A stretch of DNA of 64,000 bases from Spirochaetia bacterium (GTDB lineage Bacteria > Spirochaetota > Spirochaetia > SZUA-6 > Bin103): assembly GCA_965208575.1 (NCBI GenBank), contig CBDBOV010000002.1, positions 512,001 through 576,000 on the forward strand. The letters are read 5' to 3'. Of the stretch, positions 20,319 to 52,972 are shown piece by piece. Each line of letters starts with the position of its first letter. Positions within the stretch are counted from its first letter, which is position 1. The position numbers were made by a program, and so were the translations under genes. Below the pieces are notes generated by a model that saw only the letters and a list, made by a program, of their open reading frames with translations, did not search any database and was not told where the DNA came from.

Positions 20319-21056
20319 CTAGCGAAGCCGGAAGTCGTTGCGGCCGGAGAGGTCGGTGCCGCGCACCAGGAACACGGTGCGCTGTGCGTCGACGGCGTTG
20401 TTGCGGAGGTCGTGGTGGTACACCGAGGAGGTCGGCATGAAGCGCAGGGTCATGCCGCGGCGCGGGCGGCCGGAGGTGTTGGGTTCGGAGCCGTGCATCA
20501 GGTAGACGTCGTGCAGGGAGACCTGGCCCGGTTCGAGTTCGACGTCGACCGCCTTCGATTTGTCGACGTGCTCGGCGTCCAGCTCCAGGGGGAGGGCGTT
20601 GCCTTCGGCGTCGTTGTGGTGGTGGCTGGCGAGGGTCCGGCCGCGGTGCGTGCCCGGCAGGAAGCGCAGGCAGCCGTTCTCGCGCGTCGAGGCGTCCAGC
20701 GCGATCCAGACGGTGCAGGTGGCCAGCGGGCGGATGGGCCAGTATTCGCCGTCCTGGTGCCACGGCGTGCGCGTGCCCACCCTGGCGGGCTTGGCGAACA
20801 GGCTGGAGTTCCACAGCGCGATGTCGGGCCCGATGAGCTGCGCCACCATGTCCAGGATGCCGGGGTCGCGGGCGTAGTTCAGGAAGCACAGGTCATGCAC
20901 CAACAGGGAGCTGCAGTAGTCCGCGAACTCCGGGTGCCGGGCAATCAGCCGGCCGTGGTCGGCCCTGATCGCCTCGATCGTTTCGAGCGGGAGACGGAAG
21001 TCGGGGACGACGTAACCGTCTCGCGCGTAGCGTTCGATTTCAACCGGCGACAACAT
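20319..21056 (-). CDS. Phytanoyl-CoA dioxygenase (PhyH) family Fe(II)/2OG dioxygenase
   Basis: 'PWHQD..YW', 'TVWIALD.ST.ENGCL..LPGTH', 'HGS..N.S..PRR'. Confidence 0.92.
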   Translation of the reverse strand: MLSPVEIERYARDGYVVPDFRLPLETIEAIRADHGRLIARHPEFADYCSSLLVHDLCFLNYARDPGILDMVAQLIGPDIALWNSSLFAKPARVGTRTPWHQDGEYWPIRPLATCTVWIALDASTRENGCLRFLPGTHRGRTLASHHHNDAEGNALPLELDAEHVDKSKAVDVELEPGQVSLHDVYLMHGSEPNTSGRPRRGMTLRFMPTSSVYHHDLRNNAVDAQRTVFLVRGTDLSGRNDFRLR

Positions 21057-25482: not shown

Positions 25483-26319
25483 CTACGGCGGCGAGAGCCG
25501 CTCGCCGGTGGCGACGCTGCGGAACCATTCGTGGACGACGCGGGGCGCGCGCCCGTCGACGTTGGCGGGCCCACGTTCTGCGCGCGCGTCGTCCTGGTCG
25601 ACGATACGGGTGTCGAGGCTCAGGCGCGTGCGTCCGGTGCGGTTGGGCCGGCTGGCATGCAGGTGCGCCCCGGAGAAGCACAGCAGGTCGCCGGGGTCGA
25701 TGAGCACCGGCACTGCCGCCGCGTCGTCGAGCGGGGCGCGGCACTCGGGCAGCAGCGGATAGCGTCCCGGATCCTCGCGCAGCCGTTCCAGGTCCCACTC
25801 GGCGCTGGTGTTGGGCACGGCGCGGTCGAACAGCGCCGGCCAGATCACCATGGTGGCGCCCGCTTCGACCGGGAACACCGGCCCCCACAGGTTGATCTGC
25901 GCCATGACGTTGGAGCCCCAGGTGTCGCGGTGCGCCGGCAGGTCGCGCATGCGCCGGCCGCGGTGAGTGGCGGCGCCGGGCTGCAGGCGCAGGATGAGGC
26001 GGTCGGCGTACGTGGCGGCGGGGTCGAGCGCGAGCGACTCGATGACCGCTCGAAACGAGGCGCGCACGCGCGCGTCGCGCATGAAGGCCCGTCGCAGCGC
26101 CGCCGCACGGGTACGGAACTCGGCGGCATCGAGCGACGCTTGCGCCTCCGGAGGTGCATGCGGAGCAAACGCCCCGGCGGCCATCGCCCGCGCCTGCGCC
26201 GCCAGGGCTACCATCGCGGGCATTTGCCGAAACACCAGGATCCCGCCCCGGTAGATCCGCTCCCGGTCGAGCGGTGCCTGCACAGCGGTGACGAGGGACT
26301 CCCTGCTGATATCAGCCAC
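25483..26319 (-). CDS. Hypothetical protein, probable Fe(II)/2OG dioxygenase (PhyH-like fold)
   Basis: HxD motif 'PAHRDTW', 'INLWGPV', distal His 'GDLLCFSGAHLHAS', 'TRLSLDTR'. Confidence 0.65.
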   Translation of the reverse strand: MADISRESLVTAVQAPLDRERIYRGGILVFRQMPAMVALAAQARAMAAGAFAPHAPPEAQASLDAAEFRTRAAALRRAFMRDARVRASFRAVIESLALDPAATYADRLILRLQPGAATHRGRRMRDLPAHRDTWGSNVMAQINLWGPVFPVEAGATMVIWPALFDRAVPNTSAEWDLERLREDPGRYPLLPECRAPLDDAAAVPVLIDPGDLLCFSGAHLHASRPNRTGRTRLSLDTRIVDQDDARAERGPANVDGRAPRVVHEWFRSVATGERLSPP

Positions 26320-28953: not shown

Positions 28954-29400
28954 ATGAGCGTTGCAGCGACGGAGGTCGCCGAGGTTCTGGGCGGTCAGCG
29001 GGTGCTCGGACGCAGGATCCGGCACGCACGTGACCTGGAGGATTTGATTCGCGAGGGAGTCCCGAAGCCGGCTCTGGAACGCTTGGTCAGCTTGCTCGCG
29101 GCGCCGGGTGGTAACGGCAGGGATCTCAGGGCCGGGCTGCGGAGCCGCATCGTGTCGCGGGCCACGTATCAGCGGGCCGAGCGCTTCAACCTGCAGGTCA
29201 GCGAGACCACGGAACGGCTCGCGCGCCTCTATGCGCTGGCTGCATCCGCATTTGCCGATGGCGGCGCAACGGCGCGGTTCATGCTAACGCCCCATCCCGA
29301 ACTCGGTGATCGAGCGCCCTTCGATGTCGCGCTGACCGAGGTTGGGGGACGAGAAGTCGAGGAGGTCATCGAGCGGGGCCTGCATGGCCTCCCGGCATGA
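28954..29400 (+). CDS. Xre/MbcA/ParS-family antitoxin
   Basis: 'VAEVLGG..VLG..I....DL...IREG.P', 'ERL.RL...A...F......RF...PHPEL....P.D.A.TE.G.REVE..I.R..HGLPA'. Confidence 0.88.
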   Translation: MSVAATEVAEVLGGQRVLGRRIRHARDLEDLIREGVPKPALERLVSLLAAPGGNGRDLRAGLRSRIVSRATYQRAERFNLQVSETTERLARLYALAASAFADGGATARFMLTPHPELGDRAPFDVALTEVGGREVEEVIERGLHGLPA

Positions 29401-29836
29401 GACCGTAAGGTACGCATACCGGATCGTCAGCTCCCGGTACCCGCCATTCGACGGAGCTGGCGCGTACCGTTGGGGTAGCCGCTGGGTCAGCCCCGGCCGC
29501 CACGTGGTGCATGCGGCGGAAACCTATGCGCTTGCCGTGCTCGAGAACCTTGTGCACTGGCAAAGTGGCACGCTGCCGAGCGATCTGGTATGCGTTCGGA
29601 TCGCAATCCCGCGCGACGTTGCGCAGGAACAGGCCGACGAGATCGAGCCGGCACTGTTGCTTGCCGACGACTATCGCGCGACGCGACGCATCGGCGACGC
29701 CTGGTACGATGGCGGAGCAACCGCCCTACTGTGGGTGCCATCCGTCGTGTCTCCGTACGAGTCCAACGTGCTGTGCAATCAACGGCACGCGGAGTTCTCA
29801 CGGATTGTCGTGGGTGAGCCACTCCTGCTCGGGTAG
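29384..29836 (+). CDS. RES-domain toxin (NAD+ glycohydrolase/ART family)
   Basis: 'YRI...Y..FDG.GA...G.RW.SPG..V.H.AE..ALA.LE..VH', 'L.VPS.V.P.E.N.L.N..H.EF'. Start is uncertain. Confidence 0.85.
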   Translation: MASRHETVRYAYRIVSSRYPPFDGAGAYRWGSRWVSPGRHVVHAAETYALAVLENLVHWQSGTLPSDLVCVRIAIPRDVAQEQADEIEPALLLADDYRATRRIGDAWYDGGATALLWVPSVVSPYESNVLCNQRHAEFSRIVVGEPLLLG

Positions 29837-31234: not shown

Positions 31235-32104
31235 CTATTGCAGGTCGGGGCTGCGCGGGGCGACCGGTTCCAGGACGGAGCGCCGCTCCGGGGTAAGGCG
31301 TTCGCGCAGGCCGGGGGAGAGCTGATAGTTGAACCGGGTGCGTATGTGGCGCGGCGAGTAGCGGTACAGCACGGTGCGGCGGTAGCCGGGGTTGGTGCGC
31401 TCGGCGGAGCCGTGGGTCACGGCGTCGGTGAACAGCAGCACGTCGCCGGCGCGCAGGTGCACTTCGCGCATGCCGAGCGCGTTGCCGGCTCCCTCGCGCT
31501 CGTGGGTGGCGGCGGTGATCGGCTCACCCTCCACCTCCAGCCGCGGGTGCACCTCGGTGGCCTTGTGGCTGCCGGGCACTAGTACCGTGGGGCCGTCGCC
31601 GGGGCCGATGTCGTTCAGCGCCATGATCACGTTGATCTGGCCCACCATCCAGGCGCCGGTGTTGTGCTGGCGGAAGGTCATGTAGCTCAGCGGCACGTGG
31701 CCCCCGGAGTGGATGTAGAGGAAGCCTCCCCGGGTGCGCACGTTGAGCAGGGTCTCGTGAATCGACAGCCGGTTGACCGGATTGACGTAGCGGCTCACCA
31801 GGGGCAGCCAGGCCGGGTAGTCGATCAGGCGCTCGAACACCGCGCCCCCTTCCACGATGTTCTGGAAGTTCACGCCGTCGTCCGGGCTGTAGCTGTGCAG
31901 CTCCACGTGGCCGATCCAGCGCCCCCGTTGCTGCTTGCCGCGCTCGTCTTCGCGCGCCGGCGCCTCCTCGACGTAGCTCCAGTGATCGTCCAGCCACCGG
32001 TTCATGGCCGCAAGGTCGCGCTCCGCAAGCGCCCCCGGCAGCACCAGGTACCCCTGCAGATCGAACAAGTAATCGCACTGTCTGTCGTCGAGAACGCCGC
32101 GCAT
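31235..32104 (-). CDS. PhyH family dioxygenase
   Basis: 'YLFDLQGYLVL', 'ALNDIGPGDG.T.LVPGSHK', 'GDVLLFTDAVTHGS', 'RR..LYRY'. Confidence 0.85.
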   Translation of the reverse strand: MRGVLDDRQCDYLFDLQGYLVLPGALAERDLAAMNRWLDDHWSYVEEAPAREDERGKQQRGRWIGHVELHSYSPDDGVNFQNIVEGGAVFERLIDYPAWLPLVSRYVNPVNRLSIHETLLNVRTRGGFLYIHSGGHVPLSYMTFRQHNTGAWMVGQINVIMALNDIGPGDGPTVLVPGSHKATEVHPRLEVEGEPITAATHEREGAGNALGMREVHLRAGDVLLFTDAVTHGSAERTNPGYRRTVLYRYSPRHIRTRFNYQLSPGLRERLTPERRSVLEPVAPRSPDLQ

Positions 32105-32312
32105 GGCCCTCACCCTGCCGCAACCGCCGCCGGTCGGCAACCCTCCGCCGCGCGCGGTGCGCGCTGTGGTCCTTCTCGGGACGGCGCTCGTAGCGGCCGC
32201 GGCGGCGTTCGCCGGCCCGTCATCCGAGCCGTCCGCCTCGGGTGTACCGGAGCGCGGGGTGGAACCCGGCGGTGCGGCGCTCGAGCGCAGGCGGTGCTTC
32301 GCCGCGAGCGCC

Positions 32313-34166
32313 CTACGGCGTCCCGATCATGCCGGTGCGGCGGAGAATCTGGTCGACGCACTCCTGTGCCGTGCGCGCGTTGGTGTCCACCCGGATCTCG
32401 GGACTCTCGGGCGGTTCATACGGACTGCCGATGCCGGTGAAGTTGGGAAGCTCGCCGCGGCGTGCCTTGGCGTACAGCCCCTTGGTGTCGCGCGCCTCGC
32501 AGGTACCGAGCGACGCGTCGACGAACACCTCCACGAAGTCGCCCTTCGCGAACAGGCGCCGCGCCGCGTCCCGGTCCGCGCGAAACGGGCTGATCAGGGC
32601 TACGATGACGATCAGCCCCGCGTCGACCATCAGGCGCGCCACCTCGGCCACGCGCCGGATGTTCTCGATGCGGTCGTCCTCGGTGAATCCCAGGTCCCGG
32701 TTGAGGCCGTGCCGCACATTGTCGCCGTCCAGCACGTAGCTGTGCCTGCCCTCCAGGTGCAGCCGCTGCTCCAGGAGATTCGCCAACGTCGACTTCCCCG
32801 CGCCCGACAGGCCGGTCATCCACAGGCAGCGCGCGGACTGGCGCTTCGCTTCGCTGCGCAGGTGCTGGGTGACCTGAAAGCGCTGCCAGCGGATGTTCGA
32901 CGAACGGCGCAGCGCGTACCGAATCATGCCGGCGCCCGCCACCGAGGCGGTGAGCTGGTCCAGGAGGATGAAACCGCCGAGCACTTGCGATTCGTCGTAC
33001 GGGGCGAACGGAATGCGCCGGTTGGTCGACACGTCCACCTCGGCCGTGTCGCTCCGCTCCAGCCTCGTGGCCGGGCGCGGCCCTTCCTCGGGGTCCACGA
33101 CGTGCTTGATACGGGTCACGGTGGCGCCCACCTCGATGCCGTGCAGCACAAGCGTCACGGCGCGGCCCACGTACAGGGGAGCCTCGGCCATCCACAGGAG
33201 CGTGGCGCGGAAGTGGTCGGCAACTTCGAGCGGCGCGGAAGCTCCGGCAATCACGTCGCCCCGGCTGACGTCGACGTCTTCGCTGAGGGTGAGCGTGACC
33301 GAGTCGCCGGCGCCGGCGCGCTCGCGCGTGCCCATACCGGCCACGATCGACTCCACCCGCGTTTCCAGGGCCGACGGGAACAGCGCGACCCGGTCTCCCA
33401 CTCGAACGGTACCCGAAGCGATGCGCCCGCAGTAGCCCCTGAAGTCCGGGCTCGGCCGATTCACGTACTGTACCGGCATGCGAAACGGGCCGGCGTCGCG
33501 CGCGGGCTCCTCCACGTCGACCGTCTCCAGGTACGCCAGCAGCGTCGGGCCCGCGTACCATGGCGCGTCGGCCGCGTTCCAGCGCAGGTTGGCGCCGGTC
33601 AGCGCCGAGGTGGGGATCGCGGTGACGTTCGGTATCCCCGCATCGGCCGCGAGCCGCCGGAAGTCGCCGGCGATGGCGTCGAAGCGTGGCTCGCTCCACG
33701 CGACCGCATCCATCTTGTTCACCGCAAGCACAACCGTACGGATCCCGAACGCGGCGGCGATGCGGGTATGGCGGGCGGTCTGGCGCAGCACGCCCTTCGA
33801 TGCGTCGACCAGCACCACCGCCAGGTCGGAGTTCGACGCCGCGGTGGCCATGTTGTGGGTGTACTGGCCGTGTCCCGGGGCGTCGGCCACCACGAAGCGG
33901 CGCCTGCCGGTCGCGAAGTGGAGGTAGGCGACGTCGATGGTGATGCCCTGCTCGCGTTCCGCCTTCAGTCCGTCGGCCAGCAACGCGAGATCGACGGCGT
34001 CTCCCTGGGTGCCGTAGCGGACCGAGTCCTTCTCGACCGACCGCAGCTTGTCTTCGAACACGCGGCCGCAGTCGTACATCAGGCGGCCGATGAGGGTGCT
34101 CTTGCCGTCGTCGACGCTGCCGCAGATCACCAGCTTCAAGGGCTTCCGGGCCTCCGAGCCACCCAT
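32313..34166 (-). CDS. cysNC: Bifunctional sulfate adenylyltransferase subunit 1 / adenylyl-sulfate kinase (CysNC/NodQ)
   Basis: GTPase motifs 'CGSVDDGKSTLIG', 'EREQGITIDVAY', 'DAPGH', 'VNKMD'; APS kinase motifs 'WMTGLSGAGKST', 'LDGDNVRHGL', 'RDTKGLYAKAR'. Confidence 0.95.
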   Translation of the reverse strand: MGGSEARKPLKLVICGSVDDGKSTLIGRLMYDCGRVFEDKLRSVEKDSVRYGTQGDAVDLALLADGLKAEREQGITIDVAYLHFATGRRRFVVADAPGHGQYTHNMATAASNSDLAVVLVDASKGVLRQTARHTRIAAAFGIRTVVLAVNKMDAVAWSEPRFDAIAGDFRRLAADAGIPNVTAIPTSALTGANLRWNAADAPWYAGPTLLAYLETVDVEEPARDAGPFRMPVQYVNRPSPDFRGYCGRIASGTVRVGDRVALFPSALETRVESIVAGMGTRERAGAGDSVTLTLSEDVDVSRGDVIAGASAPLEVADHFRATLLWMAEAPLYVGRAVTLVLHGIEVGATVTRIKHVVDPEEGPRPATRLERSDTAEVDVSTNRRIPFAPYDESQVLGGFILLDQLTASVAGAGMIRYALRRSSNIRWQRFQVTQHLRSEAKRQSARCLWMTGLSGAGKSTLANLLEQRLHLEGRHSYVLDGDNVRHGLNRDLGFTEDDRIENIRRVAEVARLMVDAGLIVIVALISPFRADRDAARRLFAKGDFVEVFVDASLGTCEARDTKGLYAKARRGELPNFTGIGSPYEPPESPEIRVDTNARTAQECVDQILRRTGMIGTP

Positions 34167-35062
34167 CAGAAATACCCCTCCCGCTTCTTGCGCTCCATCG
34201 ACGCCTCCTCGTCGTGATCGATGACCCGCCCCTCGCGCTCCGACCTGCGCGCCGCCTCGATCTCGGCGACGATCTCGCCGACGCTCGCCGCCGTGCTCTC
34301 CACCGCCGCCGACAGCGGATAACACCCCAGCGTCCGGAAGCGAACGCGCTTGCGGGCCGGCTGCTCACCGGGCTCAAGCGGCATGCGATCGTCGTCCACC
34401 ACGATCCACTGGCCGTTGCGCCGCACCACGGGGCGTTCGGCGGCCAGGTAGAGCGGCACGATCGGGATCTCCTCGCACTTGATGTAGCGCCACACGTCGA
34501 GCTCGGTCCAGCTCGACAGGGCCGCCACCCGCCACGAGTCGCCGGCGGCGAGCCGGGTGGGGTAGAGGCGCCAGATCTCCGGCTGCTGGCGCTTCGGGTC
34601 CCACTGGTGACGGGCGTTGCGCAGCGAAAAGACCCGTTCCTTGGCGCGCGAGGCCTCTTCGTCGCGCCGGGCGCCGATAAATATCACGTCGTGCCGCCCC
34701 TCGTCGAGCGCAGCCAGGAACGGACGCGTCTTCATCTCCGTCGTGTAGCTCTGCGGACTGTGGCTGAACGGGGTGATCCCCTTCCGCGCCCCCTCGTGAT
34801 TGGTGCGGACCCGCAACTCCAGGCCGAAGCGCGCGGCAATCTCGTCGCGGTGCTCGATCATGGCGCGGAACTTCCACGTGGTGTCGACGTGGAGGATGGG
34901 AAAGGGCGGCTTCGCGGGCCAGAACGCCTTGCGCGCGAGGTGCAGGAGGACCGACGAGTCCTTGCCCACCGAGTAGGCCATGACCGGCCGCCGCGCCCGC
35001 GCCACGCCTTCGCGCAAGATCTCGATCGCCTCGGCCTCCAGCTCGTCGAGCCACGCCTTCAC
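34166..35062 (-). CDS. cysD: Sulfate adenylyltransferase subunit 2
   Basis: 'LEAEAI.ILRE', 'YSVGKDSSV', 'HVDTTWKF', 'GARRDEE.SRAKER', '[10 protein letters not shown]', 'SME.KKREGYF'; GTG start about 7 nt after AGGAG. Confidence 0.95.
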
Positions 35063-35172
35063 GTGCACGCTCCTGCCGCCATCGCGTTCCTCCCGCCAGC
35101 CCGTCCCGCACGTTGCACCGTACGGCTCGGGCATGATAATAGACTGCTTGTACAACCATCCAGGACTCCTGA

Positions 35173-36303
35173 ATGGTGAACTTCCGCACGTCTTTTGCGG
35201 GGGAGGCCGAGACGTTGGCGCAGCGCGAAGAGTTCAACCCCATGTCGATGGCGCCTCTGCGCGTGTGGCTGCGCCTGGTCGCCCGGGCGGGCGGAGTGCG
35301 CCGCCCGTTTCGGGGGCGGTTGCAGCAGGCGCTCATCACGAGCGCGATCACCGCGGTTCCGCGCTGGCTCGAGTGGGCCGTCTACGGTGTGCCGATCGCG
35401 CGCACCCGGATCAGCAAGCCGCCGGTGATCATCCTCGGGTTCCCGCGCTCCGGCACGACCCTGCTGCACAACCTGATGGCGCACGATCCCGACCTGGGCT
35501 ACTGCTCCAACTACCAGGCGGCCATTCCGTTCTGCCTGGTCGGCGGCGAGCGGCTCAAGCGGCGGCTGGCTGCGCGGGTGCCGGAGAATCGAGGGATCGA
35601 CAACGTGGCCGCCGACCTGGACCTGCCGCAGGAAGAGGTGTTCGCGCTCGCCATGCACTCCCACCGTTCCTCCGCGCACGGGTTCACTTTTCCTTCCCTG
35701 ATGCCCGAACTGCACCGCAAGTACGTGCTGATGGACGCGCCGGAAGCCGAGGTGAGGGCGTGGCGCAAGGGCTACCTGCAGGTGGTAAAGAAGGCGACCT
35801 ACATGCACGGCGGCAAGCGGGTCGTGCAGAAGGCTACGCCCAATCTCGCGCGCATCCCGGTGATCATGGACATGTTCCCCGGCGCCCTCTACATCCACAT
35901 CGTCCGCAACCCCTACGAGCTCTATCCGTCCTACGTCCACCTGATCTCGACGCTCACCAGGAACTACGGCATGCAGGAGATCACCCCGCAGGAGCTGGAG
36001 GAGGGAGCGGTGCGCATGTACCGGCGAATCATGCGCAAGTATCTCGCTGAACGCCACCTCATCCCCGCCGACCGCTTCATCGAGATCCGGTTCGAGGAGC
36101 TGCGGGACGACCCGCTCGGGGTCCTGGAGCGCGTGTACGGGCATCTTGGACTGAACTGGGAGCAGGCGCGGTCGGCGATCGCGGCCTACGCCGGCACGCA
36201 GGCGTCGTACCGGCAGAATCGCTACGCGGACCGGGAGCACGTGCGGCGCGAAGTCGACGCGCACTGGGGATTCGCGGTGCGGGAGTGGCAGTACCGGCCT
36301 TGA
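35173..36303 (+). CDS. PAPS-dependent sulfotransferase (Sulfotransfer_3 / Stf3-like)
   Basis: 5'-PSB loop '[16 protein letters not shown]', 'PQEE.FAL', 3'-PB '[11 protein letters not shown]', 'IRFEEL..DP'. Start could also be ATG 35242. Confidence 0.9.
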
Positions 36304-38303
36304 GCACGCTCAGCGTCGCGGAAGACCTCAGCCTGCTGCTGCTCGACGAGTCGTCGGGCGTGCTCTACCCGCTGCCGGGGCGGACGCTGGAGATCGGCCT
36401 GGCTGCCGCCGCGCTGCTGGAACTCACGCTGGCCGACCGCATCGACACCGACCTGGAGTCGCTTTACCTGGTGAATGCCGCGCCGCTGGGAGATCCGACG
36501 ACAGACCCGGTGCTGGCACAGATCGCCGCCGGCACGGAGACGCGGTCACCGGAGTACTGGGTGCGCCGTATCGGTGCGCAGCTCGGCGCACGGATCGGAG
36601 AGGCCGCCCTGGCACGGCTGGTGGAGCGCGGTATCCTGGAACGAGCGCCCGGCAACCATTACTTCCTCACCGCCCCGGTGGCGCGTTCGCGGCGCTATCC
36701 GGCGGCCAACGGCGACAGCGCGGACGAGGTTCGCATCCGGCTGATGAAGGTCCTGTTCAGCGACGACATCCCGGAACCGCGCGACGCCGACCTGATCGGA
36801 CTCGCCGAGGCGTGCGGCGTCTTCACCCGCATCCTGAGCCGCGCGGAGCTGGAGCGGGTGCGTGACCGGATCGAGCTGGTGAAGTCGCTCAACCTGCTGT
36901 GCCGCGCGGCCGCGCGGGCGATAGCCGGCGACCTGCGCGAGCGGCCGGCCGCCGCCCGCACCTACCAGCCGATTCCCGATGCCCGCGGGTTGCCGCTGAT
37001 CGGCGCCGGCCTGGCCATGAACGGCGATCTCCAGGAGTTCGTTGCCGGACTGTACCGCGACTACGGACCGATCTGCAGAGTCTCCGCGCCGGGGCGCAAG
37101 ATGATTGTCCTGGGGGGCAGGGAGGCGAACGCGTTCGTGCAGAAACACGCACGCACCCACCTGCGCAGCAACCGGTCGTTCACGGAGTTCTGCCACGCGA
37201 TGGAGACCGACCGGGCGATGATCTCCATGGACGGCCACGACCACATGAAGCTGCGGCGGACCGCGCAGGCGGGCTACTCCCGTTCGGTGATCGAGCGCAG
37301 CATGGACACGGCGATCGACATCGCGCGGCGTGCGGTGGCGTCATGGCCGGTCGGAGATCCGCTGCCGGCGTTTCGCTCGATGCAGCAGATAGTGGCCGAG
37401 CACCTGGGCGTTCTCGCCACCGGCCACTCGCCAGGGGAGTACGTCGAAGACCTGAAGTATTGGTTCGACTCGCTGATCTTCGCCGTGCGGCGCGACCGCC
37501 CGAAGTTCATGCGCGAGTACCGGTTGCGGAAGGTGCGGCCGAGGATAAAGCAGCTCTACCGCCGCGTGGTGGAGTTGCACGCCCCGGAACTGCGTGAAGG
37601 CCGCCCCGGCGACCTGATCGACGCGTTCCTGGAACTGCACCGCGACGAACCGCAGTTCCTGCCGGAGACCGACCTGATGTCCGCGGTGATCGGCCCCTAT
37701 ATCGCGGCGCTCGACACCGTGGCCGGCACCCTCGGCTTCGCGCTGTTGCGCCTGCTCCAGGAACCGGAACACGAGCGGGCGCTGCGCGACGAGGCGGATG
37801 CCGCGTTCGCCGGCGGGACGCCCGATGCACGGCAGATACGAGGGCTGGAGAAGACCCACGCGTTCGTGAAGGAGGTGATGCGCTGCCACACGATCACGCC
37901 GGTGCTCATGCGCACGGCGTGCAACTCGTTCGAGTTCGAGGGCTGCTTCGTGCCCGCCGGCGCTACGCTGCTGCTTGCAGCCGGGGTCGTGCATCGCGAC
38001 CCCGGCTACTATCCCGATCCCGAGCGTTTCGATCCCGACCGGCACCTGCCGCCGCGGCTCGAGTCGAAGCGGACGGGGGCGTTCGTGCCGTTCGGCATCG
38101 GGCCGCACACCTGCATCGGCGGCCCGTTCGCGGAGGTGCAGTTGGCGGTGACCCTCGCCACGATGGTGCACTGCGCCGAGTTCGACCGGGCTCCCTCCGG
38201 CGACCGCCGCATCAGGGTGACGGCCTACCCGAGCATCCGGCCGCACAGGAAGTGCCGCTTCCAGGTGGTGCGGCTCAGGCATGACGGGGGCGCCGCGCAG
38301 TGA
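36300..38303 (+). CDS. GPP34/GOLPH3-like domain fused to cytochrome P450
   Basis: N-terminal ~210 aa 'AEDL.LLLLDE..G......L..GLA.A.L.EL.L..RID......L.........DP.L..I......W...RLV.RGIL' (GPP34-like). C-terminal P450 with I-helix AALDT, ExxR (KEVMR), PERF and heme ligand FGIGPHTCIG. TTGA overlap with the sulfotransferase. Confidence 0.88.
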   Translation: MSTLSVAEDLSLLLLDESSGVLYPLPGRTLEIGLAAAALLELTLADRIDTDLESLYLVNAAPLGDPTTDPVLAQIAAGTETRSPEYWVRRIGAQLGARIGEAALARLVERGILERAPGNHYFLTAPVARSRRYPAANGDSADEVRIRLMKVLFSDDIPEPRDADLIGLAEACGVFTRILSRAELERVRDRIELVKSLNLLCRAAARAIAGDLRERPAAARTYQPIPDARGLPLIGAGLAMNGDLQEFVAGLYRDYGPICRVSAPGRKMIVLGGREANAFVQKHARTHLRSNRSFTEFCHAMETDRAMISMDGHDHMKLRRTAQAGYSRSVIERSMDTAIDIARRAVASWPVGDPLPAFRSMQQIVAEHLGVLATGHSPGEYVEDLKYWFDSLIFAVRRDRPKFMREYRLRKVRPRIKQLYRRVVELHAPELREGRPGDLIDAFLELHRDEPQFLPETDLMSAVIGPYIAALDTVAGTLGFALLRLLQEPEHERALRDEADAAFAGGTPDARQIRGLEKTHAFVKEVMRCHTITPVLMRTACNSFEFEGCFVPAGATLLLAAGVVHRDPGYYPDPERFDPDRHLPPRLESKRTGAFVPFGIGPHTCIGGPFAEVQLAVTLATMVHCAEFDRAPSGDRRIRVTAYPSIRPHRKCRFQVVRLRHDGGAAQ

Positions 38304-39493
38304 CCGGCGGGATCATCGACGACCCCACGTCGATTACGCCGGAGTGGATGCAGGAGACGCTGTCTCGGGGTGGCGCCGGCGCGGTGGCGGTCCGGCGGGT
38401 GGACGTCCGGGACCTCGGCGCCGGCGTCGGGCAGCTCAGCAGGATCCTGCGGGTGAGGCTCGCAGGCAGTGAGTCGTGTCCGGCGAGCGTGGTGGTCAAG
38501 CTGCCGAGCGCCGACCCGCGAATCTTCCGCATGTGCCGGCGCACGGGGCTGTACCGGCGGGAGGACCGTTTCTATCGCGCCGTGGCGCCCACCGTGCCGG
38601 TGTCGGTACCGTCGATTCTGTTCCGGGAGTTCGACGACCGCACGCACCGGTTCGTGCTGGTGATGGAGGACCTGGCAAACCGGCGCGGCGGCGGGGCGGC
38701 GGGCCGCGACCAGCTCGGCGGCGCGAGTGAAGCGGAGGCGATCACCGCCGTGCGGGCGGCGGCGCGCATCCACGCGGCGTACTGGCGCGCACCGAGCGGC
38801 CGTGCGGGGGCGCGGCCGGCATCCGCGCCGGCAGGCTACCGGGACATCTTCCGCCCGCCGGTGCGGTTCGCGTTGCAGTACGTCTACGCCAGAAGCGTGC
38901 CGAGGGTGCGGCGGGAGTTCCCGGGTGCGCTGTCCGAGGAGGAACTGTCGCTCGTGGAAGCGTTCGGGCCGTCCGTGGCGGCCGTGCTCGGCAGCCTGAG
39001 CCGCGGCGCGCGGACGTTCATCCACGGCGACTACCGGCTCGACAACATGTTCTTTCTGCCGGACGCCGCCGACCGGTTCGCCGTCGTGGACTGGCAGGCG
39101 AGCGCCATCGGCAGCGGACTGTACGACGTGGCGTACTTCATCTGCACCAGCCTGACCGAGACGGTGCGGCGGCGCGCCGAGGGCGGGCTGCTGGAGGCGT
39201 ACCACGCGGCGCTGGTCGAGGCGGGCGTGCGCGGCTTCGCCCGCGACGCGTGCCGGCGGCTGTATCGTGCGTGCGTCCTCGCCTGCCTGGTGAGGATGGT
39301 GATCGTGGCCGGTTCTTCGGGGATCGAGAATGACCGGGCGCGCGAGCTGGCGCGGCAGTGCCTGCGGCGAACGGTGGCGGCGATTCACGACCAGGACGCC
39401 TGGACGGTCGCTGCCGGACGCAAGGCCGGGGGGCTCGGCGGGGTGATCACGTGGCTGGCGGACAGGGCCGCGCGGCGCGAGGCGGCGCGATGA
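38300..39493 (+). CDS. APH/choline/ecdysteroid-kinase-like small-molecule phosphotransferase
   Basis: 'G.G.LS.I.RV', 'SVVVKLP', 'RE.RFY', 'LVMEDL', 'TFIHGDYRLDNMFF', 'VVDWQ', 'DVAYF'; GTGA overlap. Confidence 0.85.
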   Translation: MTGGIIDDPTSITPEWMQETLSRGGAGAVAVRRVDVRDLGAGVGQLSRILRVRLAGSESCPASVVVKLPSADPRIFRMCRRTGLYRREDRFYRAVAPTVPVSVPSILFREFDDRTHRFVLVMEDLANRRGGGAAGRDQLGGASEAEAITAVRAAARIHAAYWRAPSGRAGARPASAPAGYRDIFRPPVRFALQYVYARSVPRVRREFPGALSEEELSLVEAFGPSVAAVLGSLSRGARTFIHGDYRLDNMFFLPDAADRFAVVDWQASAIGSGLYDVAYFICTSLTETVRRRAEGGLLEAYHAALVEAGVRGFARDACRRLYRACVLACLVRMVIVAGSSGIENDRARELARQCLRRTVAAIHDQDAWTVAAGRKAGGLGGVITWLADRAARREAAR

Positions 39494-41115
39494 CCGGCCC
39501 GGGGCGCGGCCCGGCGCTCGCGTGGCGGAGCGCGATGGCGGCGCTGTTCCTGGTCGCCCTCGGCAACACCGCGGTGGTCACCGTGCTGCCGGCGATCATC
39601 GCGGACCTGGGCGGCTTCGACCGCTACGCATGGGCATCCACCTCCTACCTGATCGCCGCCACCACCGCCATGCCGATCGCCGGCAGGCTGGCCGATCTTC
39701 ATGGCCGCCGGGCGTTCTTTCTGATCGGCGTGGTGATCTTCATGGCGGCCTCCATACCGGTGGCGCTGAGCGGTACCATGGAGCAACTCGTCCTGTTCCG
39801 GGCCCTGCAGGGGCTCGGCGGCGGCATCATCATGGTCAACAGCACCGCCGCTATCGCGGACCTGGCGCCCCCCAAGGAGCGCGGCAAGTACCACGGCTTC
39901 ATGGGGATGGTGTTCAGCCTTGCCACCGTCGTGGGGCCGCTGGTGGGCGGGATCGTGGTCGACCGCTTGCATTGGTGGGGGTGGGCGTTCCTGATCAACG
40001 TGCCGCTGGGCATTCCGGTGTTGATCCTGCTCGCGCGCTTCTTTCCGCGTCCCGGCGCCCTGGCGCCGGCGCAACCGGAGACCTCAGCCGGCGCCGGCGG
40101 GTCCGCGAGCGCGCCGCGGATCGACTATGCAGGCATCGCCACCCTGGTGCCGGCGACCGTCGCCACCCTGGTGGCGCTGTCGGTGGCGGGGGTGCAGTTT
40201 CCGTGGCGTTCGTGGCAGGTCGTTTGCCTGCTCGCCGTCGGGCTGGCGATGACCGTGGTGTTTCTGGCGGTCGAGTCGCGCTCGCGGTGCCCGATCGTAC
40301 CGCTGACGATCTATCGCTACCGCGGCGTGCCGGCCGCGGTGGCGGCCACCTTCCTGGCAAGCTTCGGCCTGTACGGCATCATTCTGTTCGTTCCGCTGTT
40401 TTTCCAGGCGGTGCAGAATGCCTCCGCCGGACGCAGCGGCGTGTTCCTGGTGCCGATCATCGTCGGCGTCACGGTGGGCGCCGTGGCGGCGGGCCAGTTG
40501 GTGTCCCGCACCGAGGGGCGCGAGCGGCTCCTCGCCGTGGCGGGCGCCGTACTCCTCACCGGCGGCATCTACCTGCTTTCGACGCTGTCCGCCGAGACCG
40601 GCTCCGTGCTGGCCGTTGCCTACGTCCTGCTCATGGGCGCCGGGGTCGGCGCGGTGTTCACGCTGGCGGGGGTGGTGGTGCAGAACGCCGTCCCGCACGA
40701 GGATGCGGGCGCGGCCACCGCGGCCGTACAGTTTCAGCGGGCGGTAGGCGGTACGGTGGGCGTGGCGGTGCTCGGCGCGATGATGGCACGGCGCACCGCG
40801 GACCGGCTCCGCGAGGAGGTACCGGCGCGCGTGCGCGAACTGCTCCCCGACGGGTGGCTGGACCTGGCCAACGCAACCCAACTGCTCGTCGATCGGTCCG
40901 CTGCCGCCACCCTCGCCGAGCAGATTTCGGCGCCAGGGTCGGGCGCGGCCGAGCTGGCCCGGGAAGTAGCCGGCTACGCCGCGGCGGCGTTGGGCGGAGC
41001 GCTCGGCGACACCTTCCTGCTCGCGGCAGCGGTCGCCGGCGCTTCGCTGGCGGTCGCGTTCTTCATGCGCGTCCCCGGGGAGCGTACCAGGGCCGGAGAT
41101 CCGCCCCCAACCTGA
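39490..41115 (+). CDS. MFS efflux transporter, DHA2 (14-TM) type
   Basis: 'GRLADLHGRR' motif A, 'RALQGLGGG', 'GPLVGG', 'WAFLINVPLG'; ATGA overlap. Confidence 0.9.
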   Translation: MTGPGRGPALAWRSAMAALFLVALGNTAVVTVLPAIIADLGGFDRYAWASTSYLIAATTAMPIAGRLADLHGRRAFFLIGVVIFMAASIPVALSGTMEQLVLFRALQGLGGGIIMVNSTAAIADLAPPKERGKYHGFMGMVFSLATVVGPLVGGIVVDRLHWWGWAFLINVPLGIPVLILLARFFPRPGALAPAQPETSAGAGGSASAPRIDYAGIATLVPATVATLVALSVAGVQFPWRSWQVVCLLAVGLAMTVVFLAVESRSRCPIVPLTIYRYRGVPAAVAATFLASFGLYGIILFVPLFFQAVQNASAGRSGVFLVPIIVGVTVGAVAAGQLVSRTEGRERLLAVAGAVLLTGGIYLLSTLSAETGSVLAVAYVLLMGAGVGAVFTLAGVVVQNAVPHEDAGAATAAVQFQRAVGGTVGVAVLGAMMARRTADRLREEVPARVRELLPDGWLDLANATQLLVDRSAAATLAEQISAPGSGAAELAREVAGYAAAALGGALGDTFLLAAAVAGASLAVAFFMRVPGERTRAGDPPPT

Positions 41116-41233
41116 GCCGCCCGCCGGCCCGGCCGGCACGCGGGGCCACCCGCCGCCGGCCGTCGTACACGCACGCCCGGCAGCTTGCTGGTCAGGTCGC
41201 GTACTCTCCCCGAGACGCGGCACGGGCGCGAAC

Positions 41234-49420: not shown

Positions 49421-50046
49421 TTCGCTTGGCAATCGTAGTAGAGGGGGAAACAGAGGAGGAGTTCGTGAAGCGCGTGCTTACCGCACATCTTCAGACGCGC
49501 GAGGTTCAGGCGACGCCTCACTCGATCGGCGGGAACGTAACGGTGGAGCGATTGGCATATGAGATGGCCAACTATTTCTGGTCGTACGATCGCGTGACAT
49601 CGCTCGTCGATTTCTACGGATTTCGGAACAAGGGTCAGGCGTCGCGGGAAGACCTGGAAGCACGCATACATGAACAGGTGAGCAAGAACATCAAACGGAG
49701 CTGGGATCGATCACGCGTGTTTCCGTACGTCCAACAGTATGAATTCGAGGGTCTGCTGTTCTCCGATGTCATGGTCTTTGGGAAGTTGCTGGATCGTCCT
49801 CCAAATCTGGTGGAGAAGCTGAGCGCGGTCAGATCGAGGTTCCCGACCCCGGAAGAGATCAATGACAACAAAGAAACGAAACCGAGCAGGCGCATCAAAG
49901 ACCTGATGCCGAGTTACCAAAAGAGGGTCGATGGGCCCTTTCTCGCCGGCAGCATCGGATTGGCTACGCTTCGCACAGAATGCCCGCGATTTGGAAGGTG
50001 GCTTGCGCGGCTGGAGCAACTGGAGAATCAGCAGCATCCGCAGTGA
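49417..50046 (+). CDS. DUF4276 family protein (TOPRIM-like)
   Basis: 'IVVEGETEEEFV', 'VTSLVDFYG', 'PYVQQYEFEGLLFSD', 'PEEIND...T.PS.RI', 'Y.K..DG', 'CPRF..WL'; ATGA overlap with the ATPase. Confidence 0.85.
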   Translation: MIRLAIVVEGETEEEFVKRVLTAHLQTREVQATPHSIGGNVTVERLAYEMANYFWSYDRVTSLVDFYGFRNKGQASREDLEARIHEQVSKNIKRSWDRSRVFPYVQQYEFEGLLFSDVMVFGKLLDRPPNLVEKLSAVRSRFPTPEEINDNKETKPSRRIKDLMPSYQKRVDGPFLAGSIGLATLRTECPRFGRWLARLEQLENQQHPQ

Positions 50047-50330
50047 TCCAAGTTGGGGCCTCGCGATCGGCACCGCCGGTTGCTTGGTCAGGTGCTGTGT
50101 CCAGGACCGTCCGGTGGCCGCCGACGTGCGGGGGCTGCATGATGCGGTGGCGGCGGTCGGCGAGGTGGAAGGTGCCACGTTTGTCGTCAGTCACGGTATC
50201 GGCCGAGCTACAAACGCGCGCCAATCGCCCCGTCGACCATCCGCAATCGCTCTCTCCGCCCTTGCTCACACAGGCCCACTGGTCCGTGGCCCGTGGCACC
50301 GGCGCGGCCTGTCGTGCGATCTTTCCTACC

Positions 50331-51689
50331 ATGAAGCCCAATATTCTTCTGCTGATGACCGACCAGCAGCGCGCCGATGCGCTCGGCTGCGTCACGCCGT
50401 GGATGGAGACACCGCACATGGACCGCATTGCCGCCGAGGGGGTGCGCTTCAGCCGCTGCGTGACCAACTCGCCGGTGTGCATTCCCACGCGCCGGTCGAT
50501 GGCCAGCGGCCACTACCCGCACAACACCGGCATCTGGCACAACCAGAGCACGACGCTCGACCCGGAGGCGCCCAACTGGATGCGCACCGTGCGCGATGCG
50601 GGCTACCGCACCAGCGTGTTCGGCAAGACCCACCTCAATCACGCCGGCCCCGACCTCAGGGAGCGTGCGCACCTGCTCGTGGCGCAGGGCATCGACGACG
50701 TGTACGAGACGGTGGGGCCGCGGCAGTCCGCAACCACGCTGACGCACATGACCGCGGAGTGGGAAGCGCTGGGCATCTGGGACGCCTACAAGCGTGATTT
50801 CAAGGAGCGCTTCGCCACCAAGCCGCACCTGGTGCGCCCCTCGCCGCTGGGCTTCGAGCACTACTACGACACCCACGTGGGCCGGAAGGCGAAGGCCTAC
50901 CTGGAGGAGTACGACCGCGACCAGCCCTGGTTTTGCTGGGTCACCTTCGGCGGCCCGCACGAGCCGTGGGACACGCCGGAGCCCTGGTTCTCGCACTACG
51001 ATTCCGGACGGATGCCGCCCGCACTGCGCGGCGACCTGCGCGCCGGCCACCGGTCCCCGGGCCACCTCGACGAACTGCGCGCCCGGATGCCCGCCATGAC
51101 GCCGGACGACGTGGCCGCGATGCGCGCCAACTACGCCGGCAACGTGTCGCTGATCGACGACCAGGTGGGGCAGCTATTCTCGGTGATCGAGCAGCGCGGC
51201 GAGTGGCAGAACACGGTGGTGGTGCTGTGTTCGGACCACGGCGAGATGAACGGCGACTACGACATGATCTACAAGAGCAATTTCCTGAACAGCGCGCTGC
51301 GCGTGCCGCTGCTGGTCAAGGGCCCGGGCGTGGCGCGCGGCGTTTGCGAAGGCCCGGTGGAGTGGTTTGACGTCGGCCCGACGCTGGCCGAGTTCGCCGG
51401 CGCCGCGCTCGACTTCGAGCAGTTTGCGGTCTCCCTGATGCCGTCGCTGCGCGATCCCGCGGTAGAGACCCGCGCCGATGCGCTATCGGAGATCCACGGG
51501 GAGGCGATGGTGATGGACAAGCGCTGGAAGTGCGCCGTGAACGCCGACGGAAAGGCGTACCTGCTGTTCGACCTGGACAACGACCCTGCTGAGTCCGCCA
51601 ACCTGGCCGGCCTGCCGGAGTACCGCGACGTGGAAGAGCACCTGCGCCTGCGCCTCCTGGAGCGGATAATGGCCGCCCAGTTCACGTAA
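50331..51689 (+). CDS. Sulfatase (formylglycine-dependent)
   Basis: 'PNILLLMTDQQR', CxPxR 'CIPTR', 'GKTH', 'PHEP', 'SDHGEM'. Confidence 0.92.
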   Translation: MKPNILLLMTDQQRADALGCVTPWMETPHMDRIAAEGVRFSRCVTNSPVCIPTRRSMASGHYPHNTGIWHNQSTTLDPEAPNWMRTVRDAGYRTSVFGKTHLNHAGPDLRERAHLLVAQGIDDVYETVGPRQSATTLTHMTAEWEALGIWDAYKRDFKERFATKPHLVRPSPLGFEHYYDTHVGRKAKAYLEEYDRDQPWFCWVTFGGPHEPWDTPEPWFSHYDSGRMPPALRGDLRAGHRSPGHLDELRARMPAMTPDDVAAMRANYAGNVSLIDDQVGQLFSVIEQRGEWQNTVVVLCSDHGEMNGDYDMIYKSNFLNSALRVPLLVKGPGVARGVCEGPVEWFDVGPTLAEFAGAALDFEQFAVSLMPSLRDPAVETRADALSEIHGEAMVMDKRWKCAVNADGKAYLLFDLDNDPAESANLAGLPEYRDVEEHLRLRLLERIMAAQFT

Positions 51690-51736: not shown

Positions 51737-52618
51737 TCAGGACACGCGGGAGTATTCGTCGGCGGGGTAGCGGAAGGTGGCGGGGGTCTCGCCGTCAGCG
51801 AGCGGGCCCTTGTCGAGCGTCGGCGGCGGCCGGTAGTCGAACGGGGCCTCGTCGGTGGCGTAGGTCGTGGTGCGGCGCTCGCGGAGGCAGGCGCGCAGCA
51901 CCTTCTGCTTGGCGACCACGTACTCGCGGGTGAACGGGCCGTGCTCCCACTCGATCCGCACAGTGTGGAACGTGTAGTAGACCACGCGGCGCAGCTTGTC
52001 GGACACGTTGGGCGGCGAGCCGTGCAGCAGGCGCACGTTGTGGAACAGCACGTCGCCGGCGCGCAGCAGCACCGGCTCGGCGCCCTCGGTGGAGAAGCCG
52101 TCCCGGTTGCGCTCGGCGATCGCCGCGGCGGTGCGCGCGTCGGACCACTGGTGGCTGCCCGTCACCACCCAGATACAGGTGTCCAGGTCGGCATCGTCGA
52201 GGTAGAAGTCGGCGATGAACACCGGCGGGTCGGACGGGTAGTCGTCGGTGCTGGCGCGGTCGCGGTGCCACGGCACTTCGATGCCCTGGCCCGGCATCTT
52301 GAGCACCATGGCGTCCTGGGTCGGAAACAGGTCGGGGCCGGCGATCCGCTGCACGGCGGCGAGCACGCGCGGGTGGCCCATCATGGCGCGCGCCGCGTGC
52401 GACTTGTCGACCACGTACTGGATGCGGCGCAACACCTGAGAGCCGTCCAGGTGCCCGGCGCTGAACAGGTAGTCGGGCGCATCGGGATCCGCCTGGCCGG
52501 CCACGCGGTCCATGTCGGCGCGCATCGCCGCCAGCTCCTCGGCCGCGAGGCAGCCGGGCAGCACCAGCCAGCCGTTGTCCAGGAACGACTGCACTTCAGC
52601 ATCGGAAAGACAAGCCAT
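51737..52618 (-). CDS. PhyH family dioxygenase
   Basis: 'VPWHRD', 'FYLDDA....C.WV..GSH', 'AGDVLFHN..LLHGS..N.S..LRR'. Confidence 0.9.
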   Translation of the reverse strand: MACLSDAEVQSFLDNGWLVLPGCLAAEELAAMRADMDRVAGQADPDAPDYLFSAGHLDGSQVLRRIQYVVDKSHAARAMMGHPRVLAAVQRIAGPDLFPTQDAMVLKMPGQGIEVPWHRDRASTDDYPSDPPVFIADFYLDDADLDTCIWVVTGSHQWSDARTAAAIAERNRDGFSTEGAEPVLLRAGDVLFHNVRLLHGSPPNVSDKLRRVVYYTFHTVRIEWEHGPFTREYVVAKQKVLRACLRERRTTTYATDEAPFDYRPPPTLDKGPLADGETPATFRYPADEYSRVS

Positions 52619-52972
52619 GAGTGTGGTTGTACCGACTCGGCGGGCACTCGTCAAACGCCTGCCTCCCGGCGACTGTGGCCGCCCGCCGCGCCCGACGGCG
52701 CCGACGACTTCCTGTTCTGGTGGGACGATGTGACCCTCAACGAGGAACTCACCCCCAGCGTGCCGTCGCAGAGAACTCGGGCGCATGACGCTCGATGAGA
52801 GGATCGCCCAGCTCCGTACGACAGGCCTCCCCGGGTCGTGTGGTCCGGGGTAGCGGGTATCGCAATGGACGTACCGGCTTCCAGTTGCGCCGCGGAACCT
52901 ACTATGGTCGGCCCTGACGCCGCATCGGCGTGGCTGTCAGCAGCCGGCTGCGTGCGTCACGGAGGTGGACGA

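Follow-up and report, generated by a model that had tools for sequence, protein, structure and literature searches.

A GPP34–cytochrome P450 fusion gene in a Spirochaetia genome, encoded in an operon with a sulfotransferase, a kinase and an MFS exporter

The 64,000-nucleotide stretch of a Spirochaetia bacterium genome analyzed here (hereafter, the window; GenBank assembly GCA_965208575.1, contig CBDBOV010000002.1, positions 512,001 to 576,000) contains a gene encoding an N-terminal GPP34 domain, predicted to share the fold of eukaryotic GOLPH3, followed by a complete cytochrome P450. This fusion gene is the second of four genes, in the order sulfotransferase, GPP34–P450 fusion, kinase and major facilitator superfamily (MFS) transporter, which are joined by three four-nucleotide stop/start overlaps (TTGA at 36300-36303, GTGA at 38300-38303 and ATGA at 39490-39493). 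Conjugating enzymes and exporters recur in the gene neighborhoods of related fusions. Taking these observations as a whole, we lean toward the reading that the genes form a cytoplasmic "hydroxylate, conjugate, export" operon in which the fusion protein would be the oxidative step. Based on its sequence, the GPP34 domain is probably not a reader of phosphatidylinositol 4-phosphate (PI4P) or an anchor on anionic membranes.

The fusion protein and its two domains

The features of the fusion gene are as follows; residue numbering counts from the GTG at 36285.

36300..38303, forward strand: GPP34–P450 fusion gene; likely start TTG 36300, alternative GTG 36285; stop TGA 38301-38303
36318..36923, forward strand: GPP34/GOLPH3-like domain, residues 12-213 (Pfam: PF05719); acidic, with invariant R137-Y138-P139 and R152
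36924..36980, forward strand: linker, residues 214-232, followed by the PxxxGLPxxG motif at the start of the P450 domain
36981..38300, forward strand: P450 domain, residues 233-672 (Pfam: PF00067); heme ligand Cys610, codon 38112-38114

The open reading frame (ORF) extends without interruption from 36285 to 38303 on the forward strand and encodes 672 amino acids when read from the GTG. The TTG at 36300 shares nucleotides with the stop codon that ends the preceding gene and yields a protein of 667 amino acids, which is the length of the closest homologs (P0001, P0003 and P0004; 84-96% identity), with an N-terminus as long as that of the other homologs; because of these matches, TTG 36300, the start given in the original prediction, is the likelier start of the gene. 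The protein matches two Pfam families and none besides: GPP34 (residues 12-213, E 3e-33, 116 bits against a cut-off of 29.1, profile positions 2-198 of 201) and p450 (residues 233-634, E 1.6e-55), with the linker DLRERPAAARTYQPIP between the two domains. The original description of one continuous ORF carrying a GPP34-like region, a short linker and a complete P450 with an intact cysteine ligand is therefore borne out by both profiles, the linker and C610. The fusion is a real gene and not an assembly artifact: contigs from four public sequencing runs, aligned over 35100-41200, are free of insertions and deletions between 36300 and 38300, and an 811-nucleotide contig from an independent sponge-metagenome run reads through the linker (36330-37140) gap-free, with 31 substitutions. 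Apparent skips in the comparison with run contigs had sides of less than 30 nucleotides at 90% likeness and were rejected as paralogs or other organisms rather than true deletions. The model of the full-length protein has a mean predicted local distance difference test (pLDDT) score of 84.7 and a predicted template modeling (pTM) score of 0.71.

We identified 247 homologs at E<=1e-3, of which the best 120 all carry both Pfam domains at identities from 96% down to 39%; the architecture that the original prediction proposed to survey is thus a recurrent one. A search for related loci with the single fusion protein retrieved no relative, and a family alignment was needed to recover them: 479 related stretches were found in contigs representing one genome per species, and 79 loci were kept, 55 with a fusion and 24 with only the P450.

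The P450 domain contains the expected signatures, with D477-T478 in the I helix, E530-x-x-R533, P579-E-R-F582 and the heme-binding motif F603-G-x-G-x-H-x-C610-x-G612. Among 23 aligned members F603, G604, G606, H608, C610, G612, E530, R533, P579 and F582 are invariant and D477 is conserved in at least 90%; T478 comes next in the window sequence. Foldseek places CYP184A1 with bound oleic acid (TMt 0.84), P450 BM3 and lanosterol-bound CYP51 closest to the full model, and the best sequence matches of the domain are bacterial CYP51 and CYP170A1. The model thus assigns the domain to a CYP51/BM3/CYP184-like structural type; CYP51, BM3 and CYP184 all act on lipids. Consistent with the original prediction that no redox partner is adjacent, neither a Fer2 nor a Fer4_15 ferredoxin was found in the 64-kb window. 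Given that no flavin or iron-sulfur family matches the fusion protein, the N-terminal domain cannot be its electron donor.

When the N-terminal domain alone was compared with PDB sequences using phmmer, no matches were obtained at E<=10. A profile built from 33 N-terminal domains of the family matches human GOLPH3 (3kn1, E 2.7e-11) and yeast Vps74 (E 6.7e-9), and all eight Foldseek matches of the AlphaFold2 model of the domain (pLDDT 89.6, pTM 0.86) in the PDB at E<=1e-3 are GOLPH3 or Vps74 (best E 3.7e-8; template modeling [TM] scores of 0.69/0.67 to 9qpq_B). The comparison to GOLPH3 proposed in the original prediction accordingly came out in its favor, and the domain is predicted with good support to have the GOLPH3/Vps74 fold.

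The PI4P pocket of GOLPH3 is formed by W81, R90, R171 and R174, and the W81A/R90A and R171A/R174A mutants are reported to lose PI4P binding (Wood et al. 2009, PMC2806290). We mapped these positions by alignment of hidden Markov model (HMM) profiles to GOLPH3, not by structural superposition, and counted residues in the 33 N-terminal domains:

GOLPH3 W81: L30 in the window protein; Trp in 0/33 family members (L/V/I/F/A)
GOLPH3 R90: A40 in the window protein; Ala in 32/33 family members
GOLPH3 R171: A102 in the window protein; Arg in 0/33 family members, often Asp/Glu
GOLPH3 R174: G105 in the window protein; Arg in 15/33 family members

The window protein retains none of the four pocket residues (0/4), and members across the family at most one (<=1/4); members of this family thus appear to carry naturally the type of substitution that inactivates the GOLPH3 pocket. 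The domain is also acidic, with a median net charge of -13 and an isoelectric point of 4.67 in the family alignment, and a median net charge of -12 at the fusion loci, where it is negative in 49 of 53 sequences. GOLPH3 has a projecting beta3/beta4 hairpin with hydrophobic side chains; in the model of the window domain, a hairpin with short strands near residues 137-138 and 146-147 has a polar loop (PAANGDSAD) of lower pLDDT. The P450 domains have a median net charge of +3 when fused and -6 in unfused relatives (Mann-Whitney p 5.5e-7, for sequences that are kin and not independent).

These properties bear on the proposal, made in the original prediction, that the GPP34 domain may dock the P450 on anionic membranes in place of a transmembrane anchor. 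We read this as docking on the bacterial membrane at its anionic inner face, where GPP34 would do the work of the transmembrane helix of microsomal P450s. The P450 domain does begin with the PxxxGLPxxG motif, which in microsomal P450s comes after the membrane anchor; its likely substrates are lipophilic, and membrane exporters are among its neighbors. GOLPH3 itself is a peripheral membrane protein (PMC2806290). However, an N-terminal domain with a net charge of about -12 to -13, a lost phosphoinositide pocket and a polar hairpin loop is poorly suited to such docking, and the 24 closest unfused P450 relatives start straight at the PxxxGLPxxG motif without a hydrophobic segment or transmembrane helix (maximum 19-residue Kyte-Doolittle hydropathy <=1.2 in 22/24, those scorable). 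Given that these relatives have no hydrophobic N-terminal segment, the GPP34 domain would not be replacing a lost anchor, and we consider docking of this type improbable. The domain may alternatively present a lipid substrate, as the original prediction also suggested.

A further set of residues is invariant or nearly so in alignments of 23 and 33 sequences: R52, D70, D74, W92, R111, R137-Y138-P139 and R152. Conservation of these positions while the canonical pocket has been lost would be consistent with a new pocket, formed by R52, W92, R111, R137-Y138 and R152, that binds the sulfate or phosphate head group of an amphiphilic substrate or product and passes it to or from the P450. A sulfate ion occupies the GOLPH3 pocket in crystals (PMC2806290), and the enzymes encoded beside the fusion gene install sulfate or phosphate. 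We are nonetheless cautious and regard this function as unlikely, as the same signature residues are present in the two short, unfused GPP34 proteins of the genome (47% and 38% identical), whose genes are not beside a P450, sulfotransferase or kinase gene.

These stand-alone genes are located at C5:811896-812495 (L080:1483-2139, forward strand) and C3:380403-380999 (L081:1462-2112, reverse strand). The first follows a gene for a PhyH-family dioxygenase on another contig than the window (L080:445-1362, the fifth PhyH gene considered here), and the second is directly upstream of a heme A synthase gene (COX15/CtaA). A general association of short GPP34 genes with oxygenases was considered and dropped: PhyH genes occur within 3 kb at three of 10 loci, CtaA is adjacent at three of seven (only in copies of at least 95% identity), and no P450 gene was found near the short GPP34 gene at any of 17 relative loci. 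Both neighborhoods are thus conserved among the closest relatives only.

The operon and its recurrent neighbors

The genes surrounding the fusion gene are as follows.

35173..36303, forward strand: sulfotransferase (Sulfotransfer_3, E 3.6e-37); its stop overlaps the fusion start
38300..39493, forward strand: EcKL/APH-type small-molecule kinase; its GTG start overlaps the fusion stop (GTGA)
39490..41115, forward strand: MFS exporter; likely start ATG 39490, overlapping the stop of the kinase gene (ATGA); longest ORF from 39358
34166..35155, reverse strand: CysD-like sulfate adenylyltransferase subunit (PAPS_reduct fold); start codon uncertain
32313..34325, reverse strand: CysN-CysC fusion (GTPase and adenosine 5'-phosphosulfate kinase); synthesis of 3'-phosphoadenosine 5'-phosphosulfate (PAPS) with CysD

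The cysD and cysNC genes diverge from the operon at an AT-rich patch. Because the genome encodes another cysD/cysN pair elsewhere on the same contig (C2), at 33-34% identity, we take the pair beside the sulfotransferase gene to be an extra, presumably dedicated PAPS-synthesis module. Two related genomes, one from another genus, conserve the layout (81-97% identity), with cysD divergent from the sulfotransferase, fusion, kinase and MFS genes. The closest solved relative of the sulfotransferase is 2z6v (E 5e-14), a Mycobacterium avium enzyme (PMC11734872). Also among its closest solved relatives are the sulfotransferase domains of polyketide/olefin synthases. PDB entry 2zq5 is, we presume, a mycobacterial Stf protein. 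The kinase matches solved proteins weakly (E 1e-5 to 7e-4 over ~45 residues), including the kinase part of ACAD11.

Gene neighborhoods of the related loci were compared within 7 kb by combining tblastn of the window neighbors against the 79 loci with clustering of 913 flank ORFs, whose recurrent clusters were named with Pfam. The counts, which come from loci that are kin, are as follows:

Sulfotransferase: 16/55 fusion loci versus 0/24 P450-only loci (Fisher p = 0.0018, overstated for related loci)
EcKL kinase: 10/55 versus 3/24
Membrane O-acyltransferase (Acyl_transf_3): 5/55 versus 0/24
Any of sulfotransferase, EcKL kinase or Acyl_transf_3: 30/55 versus 3/24
MFS, resistance-nodulation-division (RND; AcrB/HlyD/OEP) or ATP-binding cassette (ABC) exporter: 26/55 versus 3/24
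Exporter or conjugating enzyme: 41/55 versus 6/24

Eleven of the sulfotransferase genes directly adjoin the fusion gene on the same strand. The linked loci come from Latescibacterota, Binatia, Alpha- and Gammaproteobacteria, Gemmatimonadota, Acidobacteriota and Chloroflexota. Gene contexts track subclades of the P450 tree described below, with a sulfotransferase in one subclade and a kinase together with an MFS transporter in another; the window and one other locus (L005) have both. Rarer neighbors among the 55 fusion loci are KshA-like oxygenase C-domains (4), ERG4/ERG24-type reductases (3) and GDSL lipases (3), which lend the neighborhoods a lipid or sterol flavor. Split forms were not found, as a profile search detected no GPP34 gene within 7 kb of the P450-only gene at any of the 24 loci.

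A second GPP34–P450 paralog is encoded within 7 kb of the first at L001, L002, L003, L004, L056 and L068, so the family appears to be multi-copy and locally duplicated in several genomes. Five P450-only loci from Alphaproteobacteria (L023, L067, L069, L070 and L072) share a conserved set of nearby genes that encode a Rieske plus glutamate-synthase-like flavin mononucleotide (FMN) protein, a luciferase-like monooxygenase, a short-chain dehydrogenase/reductase and a homocysteine S-methyltransferase-like protein. The Rieske-FMN protein could be a redox partner.

Other genes of the window include a sulfatase gene (49980-51689, forward strand) located 9 kb from the sulfation operon, so that the region would encode sulfate addition as well as removal. 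Four genes for PhyH-family (phytanoyl-CoA dioxygenase-like) proteins lie in the 64 kb, all on the reverse strand (20319-21056, 25483-26319, 31235-32140 and 51737-52786), and one of them is ~170 nucleotides downstream of cysNC on the same strand. A 2375-residue protein (619-7746, reverse strand) with SWM repeats and Big_5 and Calx-beta domains looks like a large surface adhesin. A DDE transposase (18618-19979, reverse strand) and two toxins, a RES-domain protein (29342-29836, forward strand) and a HipA-like kinase (54563-55786, reverse strand), suggest a mobile or variable region.

Distribution of the family and the proposed pathway

The fusion gene is, by its sequence, a member of the GPP34_L family, whose proteins are defined by a GPP34 domain with a cytochrome P450 after it (Ferreira et al., Microbiome 2025, PMC11706023). 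This form accounts for 656 of the 663 long GPP34 proteins in the sponge metagenome-assembled genome (MAG) data set of that study, and the architecture, which the original prediction had implied to be novel, was therefore already published. GPP34_L is reported there from sponge symbionts only, across many phyla, and both the long and the short forms are expressed in metatranscriptomes of Aplysina aerophoba (PMC11706023). A literature search on GPP34 and sponges found no other study of the family.

All of the loci that we kept (79/79) are from MAGs, and these belong to Chloroflexota, Binatia, Latescibacterota, Acidobacteriota, Gemmatimonadota, Actinomycetota, Alpha- and Gammaproteobacteria, Spirochaetia and others. 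Of 18 other genomes in the family to which the window belongs, 17 have a match to the fusion; none of 12 genomes from seven other families of the same order does. Several studies deposited runs labeled sponge metagenome that share 0.23-0.27 of the sampled words, and contigs of these runs align to the stretch at 90-99% identity. One full-length fusion, L071 (JAAXHV010000174.1), is from a Gammaproteobacteria MAG whose isolate label (Plut_...) is unlike the sponge-style labels, and may bear on the claimed exclusivity of the fusion to sponge symbionts.

We constructed a quick maximum likelihood tree of the P450 domains with IQ-TREE (77 rows; L021, L048 and L057 were dropped because their high-scoring segment pairs were short or contained stops). 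The tree is grossly incongruent with the phyla, and the 24 P450-only relatives nest inside the fusions, which forces at least four changes. This pattern fits frequent gene transfer and repeated loss of the N-terminal domain. Two Chloroflexota P450-only genes (L012:6995-8449 and L015:6938-8377) retain an upstream remnant of the last GPP34 helix, suggesting secondary loss of the N-terminal domain. One homolog, P0024 (649 amino acids), matches the sulfotransferase, GPP34 and P450 Pfam families but is not a three-domain enzyme; it consists of GPP34, the N-terminal half of a P450 and then the C-terminal part of a sulfotransferase, and is probably a deletion chimera that joins a fusion gene to a downstream sulfotransferase gene.

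Ferreira et al. propose that symbiont GPP34 proteins, including the long P450 form, are secreted effectors that bind PI4P on the host phagosome and block its maturation, leaving the bacterium undigested by the sponge (PMC11706023). The restriction of the family to sponge symbionts in their data set, the expression of both forms in sponges, the presence of the fusion in 17/18 genomes of the window's family and in 0/12 of the other families, the near-identical sequences in sponge-metagenome runs and the genuine homology to GOLPH3 are all in keeping with this proposal. However, the PI4P pocket has been lost, most consistently at the position equivalent to R90 (Ala in 32/33), and the corresponding W81A/R90A mutant of GOLPH3 does not retain binding (PMC2806290). 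With the Pfam match starting as early as residue 12, or residue 7 when counted from the TTG, no room is left for an N-terminal Sec or Tat signal peptide. The fusion is moreover coupled through overlapping codons to cytoplasmic enzymes that depend on PAPS or ATP and to an exporter, and a heme monooxygenase requires a supply of reductant. The terms "signal peptide", "binding site", "operon" and "sulfotransferase" do not occur in the main text of PMC11706023 (the supplements, which include a figure of flanking genes, S11, are outside this statement). The gene context, pocket loss and acidic charge thus point away from the effector model, which we judge to be quite improbable for this protein.

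In the pathway that we favor, the P450 domain would hydroxylate a lipophilic substrate, and the Stf-type sulfotransferase would sulfate the new hydroxyl using PAPS supplied by the extra cysD-cysNC pair. The EcKL/APH-type kinase may phosphorylate the hydroxyl in addition to or in place of sulfation, and the anionic product would exit via the MFS transporter. The order in which these steps occur, the idea that the substrate is a lipid and the adaptor role described next are our inferences. The acidic GPP34 domain may serve as a protein-binding domain or adaptor that pairs either with the P450 domain, which is relatively basic, or with some membrane partner. We favor such a role, as a tentative suggestion, because the domain is acidic, the P450 is relatively basic and GOLPH3 has an acidic face that is positioned close to the membrane and recognizes short basic tails on its client enzymes (bioRxiv 10.1101/2025.06.26.661719). 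By our own analogy, the logic of the operon parallels phase I/II/III metabolism in eukaryotes. Detoxification of sponge or community metabolites and production of a signaling lipid are both plausible roles for the pathway, and we do not choose between them.

A broader and more speculative hypothesis, which we regard as doubtful, is that bacterial GPP34 is the counterpart of the enzyme-adaptor function of GOLPH3 and not of its phosphoinositide-reading function. The acidic domain would hold an oxygenase to a partner with a basic surface, which could be its own P450 domain or an exporter on its cytoplasmic side, and build a phase I/II/III style cassette (P450; sulfo-, phospho- or acyl-transfer; efflux) that modifies host or community lipids in sponge symbionts. 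On this hypothesis the substrate could be sterol-like, in view of the KshA-like (4/55) and ERG4/24-like (3/55) neighbors of the fusion loci.

Several observations weigh against the pathway that we favor. Neither an exporter nor a conjugating enzyme is encoded within 7 kb at 14 of the 55 fusion loci, and cysDNC genes are nearby at only one of 79 (L050). Some loci are truncated contigs. The loci are kin that have been exchanged by gene transfer, so that counts and p-values overstate their independence. The likeness of the kinase to solved kinases is weak (E 1e-5 over 45 residues), and the assignment of the pocket residues depends on the HMM alignment and not on a structural superposition. The charge complementarity of the two domains may be a mere balance of charge over the whole protein, and type III, IV or VI secretion signals may escape detection in sequence alone.

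Proteins that combine GPP34 with a P450 form one of a small number of gene families characteristic of sponge symbionts in many phyla, and the only published idea of their function is the secreted PI4P-binding effector. The operon, its recurrent neighbors, the missing PI4P pocket and the acidic charge provide a concrete alternative that is testable at the bench. Relative to the main text of PMC11706023 (supplements again excepted), what is added is a coherent genomic context and sequence evidence against PI4P binding. The compact six-gene locus is suited to heterologous reconstitution to find the substrate. If the adaptor role is correct, it would show which half of GOLPH3 function is ancient.

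Comparison with known systems

The window protein does not differ in architecture from the GPP34_L proteins of sponge symbionts, which have the same order of GPP34 and P450 domains, are ~660-680 amino acids in length and occur in many phyla. The main text of PMC11706023 says nothing of the sulfotransferase, PAPS, kinase and exporter genes around the fusion, of the missing PI4P pocket or of the acidity of the domain. The N-terminal domain has the same predicted fold as GOLPH3 and Vps74 (3kn1, 9qpq and 2zih; Foldseek TM 0.64-0.69, profile E 2.7e-11), and its acidity matches the acidic client-binding face of GOLPH3. Unlike GOLPH3, it does not conserve W81, R90, R171 and R174, lacks the N-terminal COPI-binding extension, has a polar hairpin loop and contains a family-specific RRYP motif. 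In addition, the window GPP34 domain is fused to an enzyme, whereas GOLPH3 binds enzymes in trans.

Single-polypeptide fusions of P450s are also known from P450 BM3/CYP102 and the Methylococcus CYP51-ferredoxin, and their heme domains are among the best matches of the window P450. In contrast to these redox-partner fusions, the domain fused to the window P450 is N-terminal and matches no flavin or iron-sulfur family. A parallel in gene context is the cyp128-stf3 operon of Mycobacterium tuberculosis, which makes sulfomenaquinone (S881) and is thought to hydroxylate and then sulfate menaquinone, a membrane lipid (PMC6469627). As in that operon, the window P450 and an Stf-family sulfotransferase are encoded together (TTGA overlap), with an adjacent PAPS supply from cysD-cysNC, and the closest solved relative of the window sulfotransferase is mycobacterial. 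CYP128, whose sequence was not compared directly with the window P450, has no GPP34 domain, and the window locus goes beyond the cyp128-stf3 arrangement in encoding a kinase, an MFS exporter and a CysDNC set of its own.

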